Shown here: piece after piece, positions 3,188 through 16,286 of the stretch
Layout of the letters: each line of letters opens with the position of its first letter
Numbering within the stretch: the first letter of the stretch is position 1
From: Escherichia coli
GTDB taxonomy: Bacteria; Pseudomonadota; Gammaproteobacteria; Enterobacterales; Enterobacteriaceae
Strand: one strand, 5' to 3'
DNA: 64,000 nucleotides
Assembly (NCBI RefSeq): GCF_024223415.1
Contig: NZ_CP100500.1
Notes under the pieces: generated by a model
What the model was told of the DNA's origin: nothing
Databases searched by the model: none
What the model saw: only the letters and a program-made list of their open reading frames with translations
Position numbers and translations under genes: made by a program

Positions 3188-4006
3188 AAGGATAAATGGC
3201 GTTCTCTGTATTTATTCGCAATTATCTGTAGGACAAATATGGAGAGCTTGATGAGTCAGAGCTAAAACAGCAATTGATTAATAAACATGTTGATTTATTC
3301 AAGAAAATGGATGTATTTTAAATATTGATTCTTAATATAACCTAATCAATAGATTATCACGTGAGAGCTGCACATTATTGGAGGGGCAGGGGAAAACACC
3401 ATTTTGGGAACAATGCATCAGGTACTCTTACCACTGAAGCAAGATCATCCGGGCACCAGGTGGTGGTGCAGTGCTTTGGAAATGGTCCCCTCGGGGGAGT
3501 TGTCATTATTTTCTATGCTATTTGCTTATGATATTCATCAGGTGAATTTAATAAATTCCTAATTTGAAATATCCACTATTAAGCCAGTGTTTAACGACGT
3601 TAAGATGGCAATGTGCAGATCATGTTATCAGGGTGGGGCGGTAGCGTATATTCCTTATACAAATCATCATTCATTTCAATGATTGTTATTAAATTATTTA
3701 TTGTTGTGAATAAAAAGACATTATGAATATTGGTTTAACTTTGCATATCAGGTTTTTTATTACTCGCTGTAATGTACGAGCCTGTCGTGAATAACGTCCA
3801 GAACCCATCCGTTGCGTTTGTGATTATTTTGTTGACTAAACAGACGCCCGTTTCTCTGAAGTAAAATCCCAGACTAAATCATCACATAACCATGACATTT
3901 TCTGATATTCCCCGGTAACGCCAGTTGTCGACTCACTTATTTCATCCGCCCGACATGTTGTACATGCAATATGTGCGGATTATTATTCATTTTCACGGAG
4001 GTTGCT

Positions 4007-6115
4007 ATGTCAACCGGATTACGTTTCACGCTGGAAGTGGACGGCCTGCCACCGGACGCGTTTGCGGTGGTCTCCTTTCATCTGAACCAGTCACTCTCTT
4101 CACTTTTTTCCCTCGACCTTTCTCTGGTCAGTCAGCAGTTTCTTTCCCTTGAATTTGCGCAGGTGCTGGACAAAATGGCCTACCTGACGGTATGGCAGGG
4201 CGATGACGTACAGCGCCGGGTGAAAGGTGTGGTGACCTGGTTTGAACTGGGGGAGAACGACAAAAACCAGATGCTGTACAGCATGAAGGTGTGCCCGCCG
4301 CTGTGGCGCACAGGGCTGCGCCAGAACTTCCGTATCTTCCAGAATGAGGACATCGAAAGCATCCTCGCTACGATATTGCAGGAAAACGGGGTGACCGAGT
4401 GGAGTCCGCTGTTCAGCGAGCCGCATCCTTCCCGTGAGTTTTGTGTCCAGTACGGCGAAACCGATTACGATTTCCTGTGCCGGATGGCGGCGGAGGAAGG
4501 CATCTTCTTTTATGAGGAGCACGCGCAAAAAAGTACCGACCAAAGCCTGGTCCTGTGCGATACCGTGCGTTATCTGCCGGAGTCCTTTGAGATCCCCTGG
4601 AATCCGAACACCCGTACCGAGGTAAGCACCCTCTGCATCAGCCAGTTTCGCTACAGCGCACAAATCCGCCCTTCTTCCGTGGTGACCAAAGACTACACCT
4701 TTAAACGCCCCGGCTGGGCCGGACGTTTTGACCAGGAAGGCCAGCACCAGGATTACCAGCGCACACAGTATGAAGTGTATGACTATCCCGGACGTTTCAA
4801 GGGCGCCCACGGGCAGAACTTTGCCCGCTGGCAGATGGACGGCTGGCGAAACAACGCAGAAGTGGCGCGCGGAACAAGCCGTTCGCCGGAGATATGGCCG
4901 GGACGGCGAATTGTGCTGACGGGGCATCCGCAGGCGAACCTGAACCGGGAATGGCAGGTGGTGGCAAGTGAACTGCACGGTGAGCAGCCGCAGGCGGTGC
5001 CGGGACGCAGTGGTTCAGGTACCTCGCTGAATAACCACTTTGCGGTAATCCCGGCAGACCGGACATGGCGGCCACAGCCGTTGCTGAAACCGCTGGTGGA
5101 CGGCCCGCAGAGCGCCGTCGTGACGGGACCGGCAGGCGAGGAAATCTTCTGTGATGAACATGGCCGCGTGCGGGTGAAATTTAACTGGGACCGCTATAAC
5201 CCGTCAAACCAGGACAGTTCATGCTGGATCCGTGTGGCACAGGCGTGGGCAGGCACCGGATTCGGTAACCTTGCGATACCGCGCGTGGGTCAGGAGGTGA
5301 TTGTGGACTTCCTCAACGGCGATCCGGACCAGCCGATCATTATGGGGCGCACCTACCACCAGGAAAACCGCACACCCGGCAGCCTGCCGGGAACAAAGAC
5401 GCAGATGACCATTCGTTCGAAAACCTATAAGGGCAGCGGGTTTAATGAACTGAAGTTTGACGATGCGACAGGGAAAGAACAGGTCTACATCCACGCGCAG
5501 AAGAACATGAACACCGAGGTGCTGAATAACCGCACCACGGATGTGATAAACAACCATGCTGAGACCATTGGCAACAATCAGATGATTGCGGTTACCAACA
5601 ATCAGATACAGACGGTGGGCGTTAACCAGATAGAGACGGTGGGCAGTAACCAGATCATTAACGTGGGTTCTGTTCAGGTGGAAACGATTGGACTTGTTCG
5701 TGCGCTGACCGTGGGCGTGGCGTACCAGACGACGGTAGGTGGCATTATGAACACTTCGGTGGCTCTGATGCAGTCCTCGCAGATCGGTTTGCATAAATCT
5801 TTGAGGGTCGGGCTGGGTTATGACGTCAAAGTCGGAAATAACGTTACCTTCACCGTTGGTAAAACGAAAAAGGATGATACCGGGCAGACCGCGATTTACT
5901 CCGCCGGTGAGCATCTGGAGCTCTGCTGTGGTAAGGCAAAGCTGGTGCTGACAAAGGACGGTCAAATTTTTCTCAACGGCACAAAAATTCATTTGCAGGG
6001 TAAGGAGCAGGTTAATGGTGACTCACTGTTGATTAACTGGAACTGTGCAGCCTCGAAATCCCCACCGAAGACCCCTGATGAAAAGCAGGATACGCCGGAT
6101 ATGAGAGAGTACTGA
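4007..6115 (+). CDS. vgrG: Type VI secretion spike protein VgrG, 702 aa
   Basis: ORF 3971..6115; start set at ATG 4007 (MSTGLRFTLEVDGLPPDAF...) with GGAGG RBS at 3997-4001; gp27/gp5-like core, C-terminal beta-helix octapeptide repeats (NNQMIAVT/NNQIQTVG/VNQIETVG). Confidence 0.9.
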   Translation: MSTGLRFTLEVDGLPPDAFAVVSFHLNQSLSSLFSLDLSLVSQQFLSLEFAQVLDKMAYLTVWQGDDVQRRVKGVVTWFELGENDKNQMLYSMKVCPPLWRTGLRQNFRIFQNEDIESILATILQENGVTEWSPLFSEPHPSREFCVQYGETDYDFLCRMAAEEGIFFYEEHAQKSTDQSLVLCDTVRYLPESFEIPWNPNTRTEVSTLCISQFRYSAQIRPSSVVTKDYTFKRPGWAGRFDQEGQHQDYQRTQYEVYDYPGRFKGAHGQNFARWQMDGWRNNAEVARGTSRSPEIWPGRRIVLTGHPQANLNREWQVVASELHGEQPQAVPGRSGSGTSLNNHFAVIPADRTWRPQPLLKPLVDGPQSAVVTGPAGEEIFCDEHGRVRVKFNWDRYNPSNQDSSCWIRVAQAWAGTGFGNLAIPRVGQEVIVDFLNGDPDQPIIMGRTYHQENRTPGSLPGTKTQMTIRSKTYKGSGFNELKFDDATGKEQVYIHAQKNMNTEVLNNRTTDVINNHAETIGNNQMIAVTNNQIQTVGVNQIETVGSNQIINVGSVQVETIGLVRALTVGVAYQTTVGGIMNTSVALMQSSQIGLHKSLRVGLGYDVKVGNNVTFTVGKTKKDDTGQTAIYSAGEHLELCCGKAKLVLTKDGQIFLNGTKIHLQGKEQVNGDSLLINWNCAASKSPPKTPDEKQDTPDMREY

Positions 6116-6181: not shown

Positions 6182-9100
6182 ATGAGCGGAAAACCAGCGG
6201 CGCGTCAGGGAGATATGACTCAGTATGGCGGTCCCATTGTCCAGGGTTCGGCAGGTGTAAGAATTGGCGCGCCCACCGGCGTGGCGTGCTCGGTGTGTCC
6301 GGGCGGGATGACCTCGGGCAACCCGGTAAATCCGCTGCTGGGGGCGAAGGTGCTGCCCGGCGAGACGGACCTTGCGCTGCCCGGCCCGCTGCCGTTCATT
6401 CTCTCCCGCACCTACAGCAGCTACCGGACGAAGACGCCTGCGCCGGTGGGGATTTTTGGCCCCGGCTGGAAAGCGCCTTCTGATATCCGCTTACAGCTAC
6501 ATGATGACGGACTGATACTCAACGACAACGGCGGGCGGAGCATTCACTTTGAGCCGCTGCTGCCGGGGGAGGCGGTGTACAGCCGCAGCGAGTCAATGTG
6601 GCTGGTGCGCGGTGGTAAGGCAGCGCAGCCGGACGGCCACACGCTGGCGCGGCTGTGGGGGGCGCTGCCGCCGGATATCCGGTTAAGCCCGCATCTTTAC
6701 CTGGCGACCAACAGCGCACAGGGGCCGTGGTGGATACTGGGGTGGTCAGAGCGGGTGCCGGGTGCTGAGGACGTACTGCCAGCGCCGCTGCCGCCGTACC
6801 GGGTGCTTACCGGGCTGGCAGACCGTTTCGGGCGGACGCTGACGTACCGGCGTGAGGCCGCAGGCGACCTGGCCGGGGAAATCACCGGCGTGACGGACGG
6901 TGCCGGGCGTGAGTTCCGTCTGGTACTGACCACACAGGCACAGCGGGCGGAAGAGGCCCGCACCTCTTCGCTATCTTCTTCTGACAGTTCCCGCCCTCTC
7001 TCAGCCTCAGCGTTCCCCGACACACTGCCCGGTACCGAATACGGCCCCGACAGGGGTATCCGTCTTTCAGCGGTGTGGCTGATGCACGACCCGGCATACC
7101 CGGAGAATCTGCCCGGTGCGCCACTGGCGCGGTACACGTATACGGAAGCCGGTGAACTGCTGGCGGTATATGACCGCAGCAATACGCAGGTGCGCGCTTT
7201 CACGTATGACGCGCAGCACCCGGGCCGGATGGTGGCGCACCGTTACGCGGGAAGGCCGGAGATGCGCTACCGCTACGACGATACCGGGCGGGTGGTGGAG
7301 CAGCTGAACCCGGCAGGCCTGAGTTACCGCTACCAGTATGAGCAGGACCGCATCACCGTCACGGATAGCCTGAACCGGCGTGAGGTGCTGCATACAGAAG
7401 GCGGGGCCGGGCTGAAGCGGGTGGTGAAAAAAGAACTGGCGGACGGCAGCGTCACGCACAGCGGGTATGACGCGGCAGGAAGGCTCACGGCGCAGACGGA
7501 CGCGGCGGGACGGCGGACAGAGTACGGTCTGAATGTGGTGTCCGGCGATATCACGGACATCACCACACCGGACGGGCGGGAGACGAAATTTTACTATAAC
7601 GACGGGAACCAGCTGACGGCGGTGGTGTCCCCGGACGGGCTGGAGAGCCGCCGGGCATATGATGAACCGGGCAGGCTGGTATCGGAGACATCGCGCAGCG
7701 GGGAGACAGTACGCTACCGCTACGATGATGCGTACAGTGAGTTACCGGCGACGACAACAGATGCGACGGGCAGCACCCGGCAGATGACCTGGAGCCGCTA
7801 CGGTCAGTTGCTGGCGTTCACCGACTGCTCGGGCTACCAGACCCGCTATGAATACGACCGCTTCGGCCAGATGACGGCGGTCCACCGCGAGGAAGGCATC
7901 AGCCTTTACCGCCGCTATGACAACCGTGGCCGGTTAATCTCGGTGAAAGACGCACAGGGCCATGAAACGCGGTATGAGTACAACGCCGCAGGCGACCTGA
8001 CTGCCGTCATTACCCCGGACGGCAACCGGAGCGAGACACAGTACGATGCGTGGGGAAAGGCGGTCAGCACCACGCAGGGCGGGCTGACGCGCAGTATGGA
8101 GTACGATGCTGCCGGACGTGTCATCAGCCTGACCAACGAGAACGGCAGCCGGAGTGAGTTTACCTACGATGCGCTGGACCGCCTGGTACAGCAGGGCGGC
8201 TTTGACGGGCGGACGCAGCGTTACCGTTATGACCTGACCGGAAAACTCACGCAGAGTGAAGATGAGGGGCTTGTCATCCTCTGGTACTACGATGAATCGG
8301 ACCGTATCACTCACCGCACGGTGAACGGCGAACCGGCAGAGCAGTGGCAGTATGATGGCCACGGCTGGCTGAGAGAAATCAGCCACCTGAGCGAAGGCCA
8401 CCGTGTTGCCGTCCACTATGGCTATGACGATAAAGGCCGCCTGACCGGCGAACGCCAGACGGTGGAGAACCCGGAGACGGGGGAACTGCTGTGGCAGCAT
8501 GAGACGAAACACGCATACAACGAGCAGGGGCTGGCAAACCGCGTCACGCCGGACAGCCTGCCGCCGGTGGAGTGGCTGACGTATGGCAGCGGTTACCTGG
8601 CGGGAATGAAGCTGGGCGGGACGCCGCTGGTCGAGTATACGCGGGACAGGCTGCACCGGGAGACGGTGCGCAGCTTCGGCAATAATGCATATGAACTGAC
8701 CAGCACTTACACCCCCGCAGGCCAGTTACAGAGCCAGCACCTGAACAGCCTGGTGTATGACCGTGACTACGGGTGGAATGACAACGGCGACCTGGTGCGC
8801 ATCAGCGGTCCGCGACAGACGCGGGAATACGGCTACAGCGCCACGGGCAGGCTGGAGAGTGTGCGCACCCTCGCACCGGACCTGGACATCCGCATCCCGT
8901 ATGCCACGGACCCGGCGGGCAACCGGCTGCCGGACCCGGAGCTGCACCCGGACAGTACACTCACAGTGTGGCCGGATAACCGAATCACCGAAGACGCGCA
9001 CTACCTGTACCGTTACGATGAATACGGCAGGCTGACGGAGAAGACGGACCGCATCCCGACGGGTGTGATACGGACGGACGACGAGCGGACCCACCACTAC

Positions 9101-10387
9101 CACTACGACAGCCAGCACCGCCTGGTGTTCTACACGCGGATACAGCATGAGGAGCCACTGGTCGAGAGCCGCTACCTCTACGACCCGCTGGGACGGCGAA
9201 TGGCAAAACGGGTCTGGCGGCGGGAGCGTGACCTGACGGGGTGGATGTCGCTGTCGCGTAAACCGGAGGAGACATGGTACGGGTGGGACGGCGACAGGCT
9301 GACGACGGTGCAGACTGACACCACACGTATCCAGACGGTCTACCAGCCGGGGAGCTTCACGCCGCTCATCCGTATCGAGACAGAGAACGGCGAACGGGAG
9401 AAAATGCAGCGCCGCAGCCTGGCGGAGAAGCTGCAGCAGGAAGGAAGTGAGGACGGTCACGGTGTGGTGTTCCCGGCTGAGCTGGTGAGGATGCTGGACA
9501 GGCTGGAGGAAGAAATCCGGGCAAACTGCGTGAGCAGTGAAAGCCGCCAGTGGCTTGCGCAGTGCGGGCTGACGGTGGAGCGGCTGGCGGCACAGATAGA
9601 GCCGGTTTATTTGCCTGAGCGAAAAATACATCTTTATCACTGTGACCACCGGGGCCTGCCGCTGGCGCTTATCAGTGAAGACGGCAATACGGCGTGGCGC
9701 GGGGAGTATGATGAATGGGGCAACCAGCTTAATGAAGAGAACCCGTATTACCTGCACCAGCCATACCGTCTGCCGGGGCAGCAGCATGATGAGGAATCAG
9801 GGCTGTACTATAACCGGAACCGGTACTATGACCCGCTACAGGGGAGGTATATTACACAAGACCCCATTGGGCTGGAGGGGGGATGGAACCTGTACCAATA
9901 TCCGCTGAATCCAGTGCAACACGTTGATCCATTAGGGCTTAGTACTATGATAATAGGTAACGGCCCCGTTCCTGATAATCCTTTTGGGCATGCTGCGGCG
10001 GCAAATCGATATGGATTAATGAGTTCGGGAACTGGGGATGAGATGGGAGCCTCTGTCTCTGATTATTTTAAAAAGATGCAACCCCGCAGAGATACCTGGA
10101 TTTGGATAATAGATACAACAGATGAAGAAGAACAATGTATGATGAATAAGGCAATAGACCTTAATAAAAAACTAAAAACTATTAACCTCGGGCCTCTTCC
10201 TGTTTTAAATAATTGTTTTAGCCGAACGAACATGATTTTTGAGGCGTGCGGGTTTAACAACCCCTCTATGAATACAAATGCGCCTATAAGCCTACAAGTG
10301 CTCGGTGAGCTTTATGGATATCAAAGATATATTATGCCTAAAGGTCCTTTCACTGGATTCCCATTTGAATTTCAAGAGGTAAAGTAA
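6182..10387 (+). CDS. rhsE: Full-length Rhs polymorphic toxin, 1401 aa: PAAR-like N-terminus, YD-repeat shell, DPLGL boundary motif, variable C-terminal domain
   Basis: N-terminus [23 protein letters not shown]...; many YD repeats ([17 protein letters not shown], ...); conserved core end ...[26 protein letters not shown]...VDPLGL at 9923-9940; symbol assigned by locus position (between yncH and H-rpt/pptA). Confidence 0.9.
9941..10387 (+). other. Rhs C-terminal variable (toxin) domain, 148 aa, family not recognised
   Basis: Begins immediately after DPLGL; abrupt drop in GC content relative to the rhs core; contains His and Cys residues (GHAAA, EEQCMM, NNCFS, EACGF) but no motif I can assign. 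Confidence 0.6.
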
Positions 10388-10786
10388 ATGGAAATGCTTG
10401 GGAAGATATTAGTGATAATTATTTCCATGATAATTATATCTTGTGATTATTATAATGCTGGCATGGACTATCAAGATAATATAGCCCTCGAGCAAGTCGT
10501 AACATGGGATTCTGATAATATATTCACACCTAATATCTTTGAACATAATGGAAGATGTTTTATGAAGAAAAATGAAACATGGATGTTATTAAATGGAGAT
10601 GCAACACCAAACATTAGAACAATGAGCAATAAGAAAATAGAATGCCTGGAGAAGAGTGAAGTAGAATGGGCTAGTAGGGTTTGCGACAGTATCACAGACA
10701 AGGAAAGGGAAAATCTGAAGGCATTAATATGTAGCAAACCAGCTAAATCAGTTAATACAGGCAAAAGACCAGCGTTAGGATATTGA
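10388..10786 (+). CDS. Putative Rhs immunity protein, 132 aa, predicted inner-membrane lipoprotein
   Basis: ATG directly follows the rhs TAA stop (10385-10387); N-terminus MEMLGKILVIIISMIIIS-C19-D20 = signal peptide plus lipobox-like IISC with Asp at +2; AT-rich like the toxin tip. Confidence 0.6.
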   Translation: MEMLGKILVIIISMIIISCDYYNAGMDYQDNIALEQVVTWDSDNIFTPNIFEHNGRCFMKKNETWMLLNGDATPNIRTMSNKKIECLEKSEVEWASRVCDSITDKERENLKALICSKPAKSVNTGKRPALGY

Positions 10787-10937
10787 AACCGGCACTGCAC
10801 TCTATCACTATTACAATATTCTGAGTGACTAGAGCAACTGCTCCGCCATCCGGGCTAGCAGTATGACGACGAATCCGAACTGCACTACAACTGGCACCGG
10901 TACTACAATCCGGGACAGGGACCAGGGAAAGATCACG
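10787..10937 (+). pseudogene. Vestigial orphan rhs core 3' fragment with in-frame stops
   Basis: Translation ...LRHPG*QYDDESELHYNWHRYYNPGQG aligns with the core end ...[27 protein letters not shown] of the upstream rhs (similarity also visible at DNA level); TGA and TAG stops in frame; homology ends at the intron boundary. Confidence 0.5.
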
Positions 10938-11424
10938 GTGTGCCGTAGGCACAAAGATGCAAAACGGGACGTTTTGCATGTAATAAGCATAAGCTTGTGA
11001 AGAGATGGTGGCAGGCCCACCGGGATCTGCTGTCGGAAGTCGGTCCCAAACAACCCCGGCTGCTGTGGTAAAGAGCCAAGGTAGTGAGCGCAGGGGGAAC
11101 GATCAGACGAGATCTGATCCTGTGTGAGATACAGTGAGATGAGTAAACCCGAACCTGTGTTGAAACGTCGTTAGTCCTAAGTGACATCAAAACCGGAGGT
11201 TTCGTGATACCGCCTGGATTAATTTACGGGTGAATTCCGAATGCTGCGTAAATGGTGTCCGGCGTATAGCAGGCATGACGCTGTATCAGGCTCTTTGCAG
11301 GAACTACGGGAACCAGTCGTCGCAATGTCAAGAGAGAAATACAAATAACCGAAATTATGAGTATGAGAGTATCGATGTGCGAAACCGGGGCAGAGCTGTT
11401 CGTAGTAGTGAGGAAGCGTTTGTA

Positions 11425-12725
11425 ATGAATGTGGAGCGAAGGGGCAACGTCGGGCAGTCTGCATCACAGCCCAACTGTAAACAGGAGGAGGCTGCGGGTG
11501 AACAGACAAAACCGTTTCAGGTCAGTAAATTGCATGTGGTGGAAGCGTACCGTCGGGTAAAGGCGAATGCCGGAGCTGCCGGAGTGGATAACCAGACGCT
11601 GAAAGATTTTGAGCGGGATCTGAAAGGAAATCTGTACAAAATCTGGAACAGGTTATCGTCGGGAAGCTGGATGCCGCCGCCAGTGCGTGCGGTGGAAATT
11701 CCGAAGAAGGATGGCAGTAAAAGGCTTTTAGGAATACCGACAGTAAGCGATCGAATAGCGCAGATGACGGTGCTGGTAACGTTTGAACCATTAGTGGAGC
11801 GTTATTTCCTGAATGATTCATACGGATACCGGCATGGAAAATCAGCGCTGGATGCAATAGCAGTTACCAGAAAACGTTGCTGGCAATACGACTGGTGTCT
11901 TGAGTTTGATATTAAAGGGTTATTCGATAATATCCCCCACGATTTATTACTCAGGGCAGTGGATAAACATTGCGCGGATAAATGGGTAAGACTGTATATT
12001 CGCAGGTGGCTGACAGCGCCGGTGCAGATGCCGGATGGAACACTGAAGGAAAGAAATAAAGGTACGCCACAGGGTGGAGTCATCAGTCCGGTACTGGCGA
12101 ATTTATTTCTGCACTATGTGTTTGATAAATGGCTGTCGTTACATTATCCGGAAATTCCCTGGTGTCGTTATGCAGATGATGGATTAATTCATTGTGGCAG
12201 TAAACAACAGGCAGAGGAATTACTGAATAAACTGGCAAAACGTTTTCAGGAATGTGGACTGGAATTACATCCGGAGAAAACGAAAATAGTTTACTGCAAA
12301 GACAGCTAACGACAGGCGAACCACGAAACAGTGCAGTTTGATTTTCTGGGTTATACGTTCAGGGCGAGAAGAGCACGTAATCAGCGAAGTGGAAATCTCT
12401 TTACGAGTTTCAGTCCGGCGGTGAGTAACAGTGCGCAGAAAGGCATGATCGAAAAACTCAGGAAACTGCGGCTCAGACGCAGGGTGGAGATGAGTCTCGA
12501 AGATATTGCGAAAAGGCTGAATCCGATGATATCGGGGTGGCTGAATTATTACGCGAAATACCACAAAGATATATTAATCTGACGCTGATTGCGTGGGCGA
12601 GAAAGAAATATAAAACCCTGCGGTATAGAAAGACGAAGGCGTGTCAGCTAATGGAAAGGCTGTCAAAAGAGAAGCCGGAGTTGTTTGCCCACTGGAATGC
12701 AGGACCGGAAAGCGCGTTTGCCTGA
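11425..12725 (+). pseudogene. Group II intron reverse transcriptase/maturase (IEP), disrupted by an in-frame TAA and a frameshift
   Basis: RT motifs (AGAAGVDNQTL..., GTPQGGVISPVLANLFL, RYADDGLI = YADD box) and X/maturase motifs (FDFLGYTF, ISGWLNYY); TAA at 12307-12309 interrupts the frame; C-terminal segment (12537..12725) is in a different frame; start could alternatively be the upstream ATG at 11230. Confidence 0.75.
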
Positions 12726-12728
12726 CGG

Positions 12729-12762
12729 GAGCCGTATGAAGCGAGAGTTTCACGTACGGTTC
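12729..12762 (+). ncRNA. Group II intron domain V (catalytic hairpin)
   Basis: gagccgtatgaagcgagagtttcacgtacggttc: 10-bp lower stem with AGC triad at positions 2-4, 2-nt bulge on the 3' strand, 4-bp upper stem, GNRA (GAGA) tetraloop; 4 nt after the IEP stop. Confidence 0.7.
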
Positions 12763-12945
12763 TGCGAGAGGCTGTCGGGGAGGTTCCGGTGGCCTACTCA
12801 CTTAACGCTGCTTTTTTGTACTAAATAATTCGCATTTTATGTTTAAAAATTGAGATATTCCCCATTACCTAAAGCTGTTTTTTATTGCTTATACATGATC
12901 AAATACTCCTTACATAATTAAGGAGAACAAAATGGAATTAAAAAA

Positions 12946-14067
12946 TTGATGGAACATATTTCTGTTATCCCCGATTACAGACAAGCCTGGAAAGTGGAAC
13001 ATAAATTATCGGATATTCTACTGTTGACTATTTGTGCCGTTATTTCTGGTGCAGAAGGTTGGGAAGATATAGAGGATTTTGGGGAAACACATCTCGATTT
13101 TTTGAAGCAATATGGTGATTTTGAAAATGGTATTCCTGTTCACGATACCATTGCCAGAGTTGTATCCTGTATCAGTCCTGCAAAATTTCACGAGTGCTTT
13201 ATTAACTGGATGCGTGACTGCCATTCTTCAGATGATAAAGACGTCATTGCAATTGATGGAATAACGCTCCGGCACTCTTATGATAAGAGTCGTCGCAGGG
13301 GAGCGATTCATGTCATTAGTGCGTTCTCAACAATGCACAGTCTGGTCCTCGGACAGATCAGGACGGATGAGAAATCTAATGAGATTACAGCTATTCCTGA
13401 ACTTCTTAACATGATGGATATTAAAGGAAAAATCATCACAACTGATGCGATGGGTTGCCAGAAAGATATTGCAGAAAAGATACAAAAACAGGGAGGGGAT
13501 TATTTATTCGCTGTAAAGGGAAATCAGGGGCGACTAAATAAAGCCTTTGAGGAAAAATTCCCGCTGAAAGAATTAAATAATCCAGAGCATGACAGTTACG
13601 CAATCAGTGAAAAGAGTCACGGCAGAGAAGAAATCCGTCTTCATATTGTTTACGATGTCCCTGATGAACTTATTGATTTCACGTTTGAATGGAAAGGGCT
13701 GAAGAAATTATGCGTGGCAGTCTCCTTTCGGTCCATAATAGCAGAACAAAAGAAAGAGCCAAAAATGACGGTCAGATATTATATCAGTTCTGCTGATTTA
13801 ACCGCAGAGAAGTTCGCCACAGCAATCCGAAACCACTGGCACGTGGAGAATAAGCTGCACTGGCGTCTGGACGTGGTAATGAATGAAGACGACTGCAAAA
13901 TAAGAAGAGGAAATGCAGCAGAATTATTTTCAGGGATACGGCACATTGCTATTAATATTTTGACGAATGATAAGGTATTCAAGGCAGGGTTAAGACGTAA
14001 GATGCGAAAAGCAGCCATGGACAGAAACTATCTGGCGTCAGTCCTTGCGGGGAGCGGGCTTTCGTAA
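12946..14067 (+). CDS. ydcC: H-repeat-associated protein (ISAs1-family transposase), Rhs-linked
   Basis: ORF 12946..14067 (373 aa as called from a TTG; next codon is ATG) with DDE-type transposase sequence; an upstream ATG at 12932 with AGGAG RBS (12921-12925) is out of frame because of a 6-A run at 12940-12945. Confidence 0.85.
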
Positions 14068-14377
14068 TCTTGCCCTGGTTCGTTGAGTTTTTCTGCATTG
14101 CCGGTAATTTTTGCATCTTCTTTGTCCGTGGCTTGTTTCAGCGTCTATAATGGGCGTTAATAAATTGGCAAGTCGGGAACTTGATGTTTTCTTAATGGTA
14201 TGTAGGCAGAAGAATATGTTCTGCAAGTTGACGATTTGTTGGTGCTTTATTTAAAAGGGTGTAGTGCAAATATCTACAATTTCAAGTAGGCATTATTGTC
14301 GTAAAAACGCATCACCGGACATACGACATTCACAATGTGTGTTAATTTTACTGACATCTTTCAAAAGGAGCACAATC

Positions 14378-16196: not shown

Positions 16197-16206
16197 TATA
16201 TGTCAG

Positions 16207-16286
16207 GTTGCCGGATGCGGCGTAAACGCCTTATCCGGCATACATTAGCTCGGTTGTAGACCTGATAAGCGAAGCGCATCAGGCAA
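16207..16286. repeat. REP/BIME element (two REP units)
   Basis: gccggatgcggcgtaaacgccttatccggc ... tgtagacctgataagcgaagcgcatcaggca between convergent nhoA and yddE. Confidence 0.6.

Follow-up and report, generated by a model that had tools for sequence, protein, structure and literature searches.

What does the short Rhs-like sequence between an rhs immunity gene and an H-rpt element represent, and what became of the rest of the gene to which it belonged? This question is raised by the RhsE locus of Escherichia coli, which is the setting of the 64,000-nucleotide stretch of DNA analysed in this study (hereafter, the window). The gene order of the locus is ansP-yncG-yncH, vgrG (3971-6115), a main rhs gene of 1401 aa (6182-10387, plus strand), a putative cognate immunity gene of 132 aa (10388-10786, plus strand; WP_000425544), the stub region considered here, an H-rpt/ISAs1 transposase gene, and pptA-yddH-nhoA; K-12 carries rhsE'-ydcD-yncI'-ydcC at the same position. 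The main rhs gene was taken from the list of open reading frames, and the PGAP annotation of strain Combat11I9 (L001), which is 100% identical to the window over the queried 713 bp (10388-11100), names it 'RHS element core protein'. NCBIfam RHS_core and TIGR03696 match the C-terminal part of its protein. The core ends with DPLGL at 9926-9940 and is followed by the toxin tip CT1 (9941-10387, 149 aa); GC content is 63% in the core versus 40% in CT1. Neither CT1 nor the putative immunity protein matched a Pfam or NCBIfam family, and both occur in about 550 E. coli genomes. Elsewhere in the window, a sub-threshold Rfam match to naRNA4 (16202-16240, minus strand; 39.9 bits against a gathering threshold of 59.5) is probably a REP-type repeat downstream of nhoA.

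A preliminary description of this DNA regarded the whole 150 bp after the immunity gene as a decayed fragment of an rhs core with two in-frame stops. Homology to the Rhs core end was confirmed by alignment, as were both stops; the extent of the fragment was not. The stub proper covers 10821-10922 on the plus strand and begins 35 bp past the stop of the immunity gene behind the 1401-aa rhs. The preceding 10787-10820 is a spacer of 38% GC running from the immunity stop codon to the stub; it showed no detectable Rhs-core homology in alignments to Salmonella and Citrobacter cores, which start only at 10821-10829. The last 15 bp, 10923-10937, belong to H-rpt, as described below. Frame 3 of 10772-10937 reads ...SE(stop)LEQLLRHPG(stop)QYDDESELHYNWHRYYNPGQG, the two stops within the stub being TGA at 10826-10828 and TAG at 10856-10858. 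Positions 10850-10920 align with 9773-9843, the homologous segment of the main rhs core, with 54 of 71 nucleotides identical (76%; blastn E 2e-9 within the window), so the similarity to the resident core end is significant once the two are aligned. The 31-aa translation of the stub matches positions 1199-1229 of the 1261 in NCBIfam RHS_core (NF041261; E 2e-7).

A chance match to the Rhs core end could be imagined, since the match is short, with 31 recognisable codons, and the stub scores 28.9 bits with TIGR03696 (model positions 14-43 of 76), below the curated cutoff of 32.5. Such a score is to be expected of a domain fragment. The stub-core alignment score of 57 was not attained in any of 1000 dinucleotide shuffles (mean 17.4, maximum 29), and the core ends of Salmonella and Citrobacter rhs loci match 10821/10829-10922 with 78-82% nucleotide identity (E 1e-18 to 1e-23), better than the core to which the stub is attached. 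In 357 genomes, moreover, a genuine Rhs core end and tip follow the stub in colinear order. A coincidental resemblance is thus vanishingly unlikely. The stub itself escapes some searches: Pfam returned nothing for the 31-aa stub, for CT1 or for either immunity ORF, and the peptide ESELHYNWHRYYNPGQG had no match in a degenerate-codon scan of 100,044 species-representative genomes. PGAP labels the same stub in strain Z1002 (L009; NZ_CP021202.1) as 'RHS repeat-associated core domain-containing protein; internal stop; missing N- and C-terminus', and it is without annotation in Combat11I9.

The nature of the stub becomes apparent from other strains. Among 5426 complete E. coli genomes, on which all distribution counts are based, about 560 carry it, with 98.5-100% conservation. 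In about 357 of them it runs on into a full orphan, consisting of the rest of the core end, a Tox-WTIP tip (CT2) and an immunity gene; examples are WCHEC020031 (L002), NZ_LR536430.1 (L007), L011 and L013. At the same locus in WCHEC020031, the identical sequence goes past 10922 as GATATATCACCCAGGACCCGATAGGG... The core end of the full orphan carries the motif NPVQWID(L/P)LGL, followed by the Tox-WTIP domain (PF15654, 50 bits) within a tip of about 125 aa and by a 114-aa ORF; the orphan of WCHEC020031 scores 85.5 bits with TIGR03696. The 114-aa ORF (WP_001279018/016), whose role in immunity is putative, is intact after the tip in L007, L010, L011 and L013. In a database of 5.8 billion proteins, the nearest relatives of the orphan were Salmonella orphan Rhs proteins of 218-291 aa with 81% amino acid identity, and no full-length Rhs protein with the tip of the Tox-WTIP orphan was returned; other E. 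coli core ends show only 74-84% identity to the orphan core end. Because the TAG stop of the stub is also found in the full orphans, decay is older than truncation. These strains bear out the suggestion that the stub was left behind by an orphan rhs-CT/immunity module.

Some side features of the orphan in other genomes can be recorded here. A 197-aa E. coli protein (P0001) corresponds to the reverse complement of the IS66 tnpA fragment region joined to the orphan at ...YNPGQGRYITQ, with DPLGL intact; this join suggests that a further rearrangement, by inversion, broke the sequence within the stub region. In WCHEC020031-type strains, a 13-bp H-rpt-like end (CAGGGGAAGATCA) lies just past the orphan immunity gene, and about 230 bp, including an IS66-family tnpA fragment, separate it from the true left end of H-rpt (the region is 7010-7260 in WCHEC020031 and 5877-6125 in L007). 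In ATCC 8739-type strains the intron directly follows the first H-rpt-like end.

The window thus holds part of an orphan module. The stub lies directly downstream of the main rhs/immunity pair and starts with partial conserved core sequence, with neither an N-terminal region nor a start codon (no ATG). The rest of the core end with its PxxxxDPxGL motif, the variable toxin domain and the cognate immunity gene behind the tip are all missing, and H-rpt occupies the sequence from 10923 onward. Everything 3' of ...CCGGGACAGGGAC, amounting to about 0.9-1.1 kb depending on the reference strain, is gone from the window lineage, including the DPxGL cleavage motif, the toxin tip, its immunity gene and a downstream spacer. 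We consider it highly probable, at roughly 0.9, that 10821-10922 is a non-functional leftover from the 5' part of an orphan rhs module and that the remainder was removed by a rearrangement ending at the left terminus of H-rpt, the figure applying to both statements jointly. As judged from its sequence, the stub should have no activity of its own, having no start codon, two stops and no tip.

Where the homology ends bears directly on how the tip was lost. It had been proposed that the homology stops exactly where the group II intron begins, and that the tip was lost to the intron and H-rpt together. Core homology in fact stops at 10922, 15 bp ahead of the intron, and these 15 bp (10923-10937, plus strand; CAGGGAAAGATCACG) are the first bases of the left inverted repeat of an ISAs1-family, ISEc1-like H-rpt, now serving as the 5' exon of the intron. 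They form an inverted match to 14063-14079, and are contiguous with TAACGCTGCTTTTTTG... in the intron-less strains 1190 (L003) and Z1002. In these two strains and in N3 (L014), CAGGGAAAGATCACG is joined directly to TAACGCTGCTTTTTTGTAC..., which is the window sequence from 12803 onward. The intron-less contiguous copies therefore identify the 15 bp as the left end of H-rpt and place the intron at exactly 10938-12802. With a query spanning the junction, matches start exactly at 10923 in about 2277 genomes.

With a mere 15 bp separating the intron from the point where homology stops, its insertion could be taken as the event that destroyed the orphan tip. Against this, those 15 bp are the H-rpt terminus and are not orphan sequence in the full-length orphans compared; H-rpt sits directly on the stub in the intron-less strains 1190, N3 and Z1002; the intron occurs with the same H-rpt exons at a T6SS locus of NZ_CP122451.1 (L012) and at the same insertion position in about 2277 genomes; and E.c.I9, the probable type of the intron, is documented as targeting the Rhs IS (PMC3522654). 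Destruction of the tip by the intron is therefore extremely unlikely. The break lies at the H-rpt terminus, and the part of the earlier proposal that involves the intron is unsupported, as 1190 and N3 have the same junction without it.

The junction of stub and H-rpt exists in two forms. The form of the window occurs in about 89 genomes (matches with at least 99% identity), about 42 of which also contain the intron; 1190 and N3 represent it without the intron. A second left-end junction, with ...CCGATAGGG followed by CAGGGAAAGATCACG, lies 26 bp further into the orphan in 116 genomes (for example, Z1002, 6974-7010). This deeper junction is an independent H-rpt truncation of the same orphan. The three classes, 357, 116 and about 89, sum to about the 560 genomes with the stub. 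A microhomology-mediated deletion between two ACAGGGA motifs was also considered and was rejected; both copies are kept at the junction (GGACAGGGAC joined to CAGGGAAAG).

The intron (10938-12802, plus strand, 1865 nt, with boundaries taken from empty sites) has the ribozyme domains expected of a group II intron, with Rfam RF01999 (D1-D4) at 11007-11122 (93.9 bits; gathering threshold 36) and RF00029 (D5/D6) at 12727-12802 (62.8 bits; gathering threshold 40). Its 5' end at 10938, GTGTG, agrees with the GUGYG pattern. The intron-encoded RT/maturase is a remnant (11425-12722), which, relative to the intact 440-aa ltrA of L008, is interrupted by a TAA stop at 12307-12309 (residue 295) and lacks 22 bp at 12567; PGAP describes it as 'frameshifted; internal stop' in Combat11I9. 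The intron is 96% identical in nucleotide sequence to the single full-length intron of ATCC 8739 at the same Rhs locus. The ATCC 8739 copy was named E.c.I9, assigned to bacterial class D, placed 'in a Rhs region' and described as targeting the Rhs IS (Leclercq & Cordaux 2012, PMC3522654, supplement). On the strength of the 96% identity, we infer that the window intron is a decayed intron of E.c.I9 type. A full-text literature search returned no paper directly on a group II intron with H-rpt, H-repeat or Rhs; the link came via PMC3522654.

Window-type and ATCC 8739-type copies have the intron at an identical position inside H-rpt. The same composite of intron and H-rpt, with the same H-rpt 5' and 3' exons, is present at the unrelated T6SS locus of L012, and the intron is therefore an independent passenger of H-rpt. 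It occupies its customary homing site, 15 bp into H-rpt, and is itself dead. In L012 (4860-5020), the composite is preceded by an extra H-rpt left repeat and about 110 nt of the intron 5' end, a nested or duplicated 5' fragment. There are also two left-end variants of H-rpt at element positions 13-27 (window 10935-10937 plus 12803-12814, compared with L004 6685-6699), which can be told apart by a stretch of about 12 nt surrounding the intron site: CGTAACGCTGCT in the window, 1190, Z1002 and L012, and TCAGAAGTTCAC in K-12, WCHEC020031 and L007. The intron-bearing copies of ATCC 8739 type (L008, L010 and L011) have a related 3' exon, AGAAGTACAC.

The H-rpt element as a whole extends over 10923-14077 on the plus strand and is split by the intron between its positions 15 and 16. 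The remainder (12803-14077) contains a transposase ORF of 373 aa (12946-14067) and the right inverted repeat, ending ...CTTGCCCTG at 14077. The transposase is of the ISAs1 DDE type (NCBIfam transpos_ISAs1 NF033564, 409 bits against a cutoff of 70) with the Pfam domains DDE_Tnp_1_assoc and DDE_Tnp_1. Both terminal repeats start with CAGGG, and the left (CAGGGAAAGATCACGTAA; 10923-10937 plus 12803-12805) agrees with the right (CAGGGCAAGATTACGAAA; the reverse complement of 14060-14077) at 15 of 18 positions. No target-site duplication surrounds the window H-rpt, whose left flank reads GGGACAGGGAC and whose right flank reads GTTCGTTGAG. The junction therefore arose by secondary rearrangement and not by simple insertion. 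A simple insertion of the same H-rpt, with the 10-bp duplication GCCCGACATG, is found upstream of vgrG in MB06233 (L010; NZ_CM129883.1). The window H-rpt is 3-4% diverged from every compared copy, and a binned comparison with eight other copies revealed no clear mosaic or recombination breakpoint. L007 (6113-8680) carries two H-rpt copies in direct tandem at RhsE, one intact and one with an internal stop, which are a ready substrate for inter-element recombination.

Strains also differ at the right end of H-rpt. In the window, a 210-bp AT-rich segment (14078-14288) separates the H-rpt right end from pptA-proximal sequence. It is absent in K-12 and L007, where H-rpt directly abuts the equivalent of 14289. 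Z1002 has part of it, together with additional GGDEF and sulfatase genes at that place. These differences look like nested deletions at the H-rpt right end.

Two routes could have removed the 3' part of the orphan and left an endpoint at exactly the H-rpt left terminus. A transposase-mediated adjacent deletion may have started from the H-rpt left end; alternatively, a fresh H-rpt may have inserted into the orphan core and then recombined with the resident downstream H-rpt. Both routes would give the same product. A chimeric query, combining the H-rpt right end with the orphan continuation, found no intermediate among the 5426 genomes that has H-rpt in the orphan core and the orphan remainder beyond it; the single two-piece match, in L010, has a different structure. 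With no such intermediate and no clear mosaic in H-rpt, the two routes are indistinguishable. The direction of change, from full orphan to cut orphan, would follow from parsimony rather than from phylogeny. Adjacent deletions mediated by insertion sequences are a general property of transposable elements, and the two left-end junctions together with the strain differences at the right end suggest recurrent H-rpt-end rearrangements at this locus. A bolder proposal is that H-rpt (ISEc1) actively prunes orphan toxin arrays by adjacent deletion, preferring core ends that resemble its own CAGGG terminus. Its basis is two junctions, no more than 26 bp apart in the orphan core, which directly follow ...CAGGGAC or ...ATAGGG, and we regard it as speculative and rather unlikely. 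If true, it would make H-rpt a driver of toxin-repertoire loss and would shed light on the association of H-rpt with Rhs loci, which has long been noted without an explanation.

The preliminary description also viewed the stub as a record of past tip replacement at this locus. Its company in other genomes bears on this point. Of 566 genomes, 544 carry CT1, the immunity gene and the stub together. Between strains, the cassette that they form keeps 96-100% identity even where the 3' region of the neighbouring core diverges by 10-20%, the change falling at about 9900, and it is found at two chromosomal loci, RhsE and beside yafV. Taken together, the co-occurrence, the identity switch and the two loci indicate that the stub travels as the tail of the cassette. 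In two E. coli genomes whose annotation does not place CT1 inside a full-length RHS element core protein, the main genes are broken, and CT1 is not an orphan. The stub may therefore have been imported with CT1 and the immunity gene as one unit, for example, as a circular intermediate from a Salmonella- or Citrobacter-like orphan array, and would then record events in the donor. The linkage of the three parts, the jump in identity from a core of 80-90% to a cassette of 96-100% and the occurrence at both loci favour such an import. So do the core ends, the stub being counted here as closer to Salmonella-type cores (78-82%) than to E. coli cores (74-84%), and the closest relatives of CT2, which are the Salmonella orphans. 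However, the orphan tail (GGLNPYSYVMNNPVQWID) and CT2 are also Salmonella-like, and the stub could be CT2's own core fragment, displaced as a unit; L010 has CT2 on a resident-type core at the RhsE locus itself; and no donor array with CT1 preceded by the stub was found. Import is possible, but we hold it only tentatively, at somewhat less than even odds.

The 76% identity between stub and attached core departs from the simplest picture of displacement, and would fit a foreign, Salmonella-like origin followed by decay. The stub records the history of a tip array, which need not have happened in this lineage at the RhsE locus. The proposed tip replacement at this locus is supported only in part: L010 shows exchange of main core and orphan here, but the stub moves with the current cassette, the cassette occurs at two loci, and the stub is of a Salmonella-like core type.

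The exchange in L010 can be located closely. Over positions 7061-7700, its core end equals the main core of WCHEC020031 up to TATATCACCCAGGACCCGAT and then continues as the orphan tail with the Tox-WTIP tip and an intact DPLGL. L010 is either a natural recombinant of main core and orphan or an ancestral arrangement from before the current cassette. Recombination between a main core and an orphan has been selected experimentally in Salmonella (Koskiniemi 2014, PMC3967940). The exchange block is the 20 nt immediately 3' of window position 10922, which is deleted in the window strain. The hybrid gene of L010 was subsequently lost to a deletion joining the vgrG start (ATGTCA) with the core end.

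Such exchanges raise the question of whether the stub has been kept for a function, as a patch of homology for tip switching or as a 3' UTR or regulatory RNA of the immunity gene. Recombination between orphan and main gene is real in Salmonella (PMC3967940) and apparently occurred also at the RhsE locus, in L010, and the stub is highly conserved across the 560 genomes. That conservation is high because the cassette shares recent common descent. Nothing downstream of the stub is available to be switched in, and the crossover block of L010 lies 3' of 10922, in the part deleted here. The 76% identity over 71 nt includes an exact match to the resident rhs of at most 10 nt, compared with 522 bp at 95% in Salmonella (PMC3967940). 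With no more than 10 consecutive shared bases and nothing downstream, the stub is therefore no recombination substrate. A scan of the stub region detected no terminator-like sites and no excess of promoters, and folding of its RNA gave no unusual structure (z = -0.54). A retained function is very unlikely; the stub is an ordinary pseudogene scar of an already known kind.

The stub itself is of little import; in other genomes, PGAP already lists this sequence as a partial RHS pseudogene. In the comparison around it, a single orphan occurs in three states across about 560 genomes, either complete or truncated by an H-rpt end at one of two points. With its one natural hybrid of main core and orphan, the locus is a compact natural example of Rhs toxin-array turnover, in which tips are transferred with immunity genes as cassettes, a 20-nt block of identity at the core end allows orphans to be joined to a main core again, and IS ends erase orphans. 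The strain has lost the Tox-WTIP orphan toxin together with its putative immunity gene, and could be sensitive to kin deploying that toxin. For annotation, the 15 bp before the intron should be assigned to H-rpt; intron, H-rpt and stub are three nested elements that decayed independently.

The elements of the locus can be compared with systems already described. The stub resembles orphan rhs-CT/rhsI modules (PMC2935791; Poole et al. 2011, PMC3150448; PMC3967940) in its place directly downstream of the main pair, its partial core end and its lack of a start codon. In other strains the likeness extends to DPxGL, a distinct toxin tip and a small immunity ORF, and the hybrid of L010 is arranged as in evolved Salmonella. 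Unlike the described modules, the stub retains only about 100 nt of core, has no DPxGL, tip or immunity gene, contains two stops and is truncated by an IS end. Dissociated core fragments have been described as matching the attached core (Jackson et al. 2009, PMC2935791); the stub shows 76% identity to its attached core, compared with 95-100% in the described orphan modules.

The mobile elements are likewise close to known ones, with differences of their own. Like H-rpt/ISEc1 of K-12 (ydcC, RhsE), the window H-rpt has an ISAs1 transposase, CAGGG-terminated repeats and a place beside pptA. It differs in the intron 15 bp from its left end, in having orphan rhs core as its left flank, in the absence of a target-site duplication and in the 210 bp on its right (14078-14288) that K-12 lacks. 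The intron shares with E.c.I9 of ATCC 8739 the insertion position in H-rpt, the locus, the Rfam domains and the GUGUG 5' end; its RT/maturase is inactivated by the TAA and the 22-bp deletion, and the 3'-exon bases of the host H-rpt are TAACGCTGCT in the window versus AGAAGTACAC for E.c.I9. As for the loss of the orphan, the junctions resemble IS adjacent deletions in ending exactly at the IS terminus, in their variable distal endpoints (10922, and 26 bp further in Z1002-type strains), in the loss of the target-site duplication and in right-end differences of variable extent among strains. They depart from the general case in that adjacent deletion by H-rpt is a candidate mechanism only, recombination between two H-rpts giving the same product.
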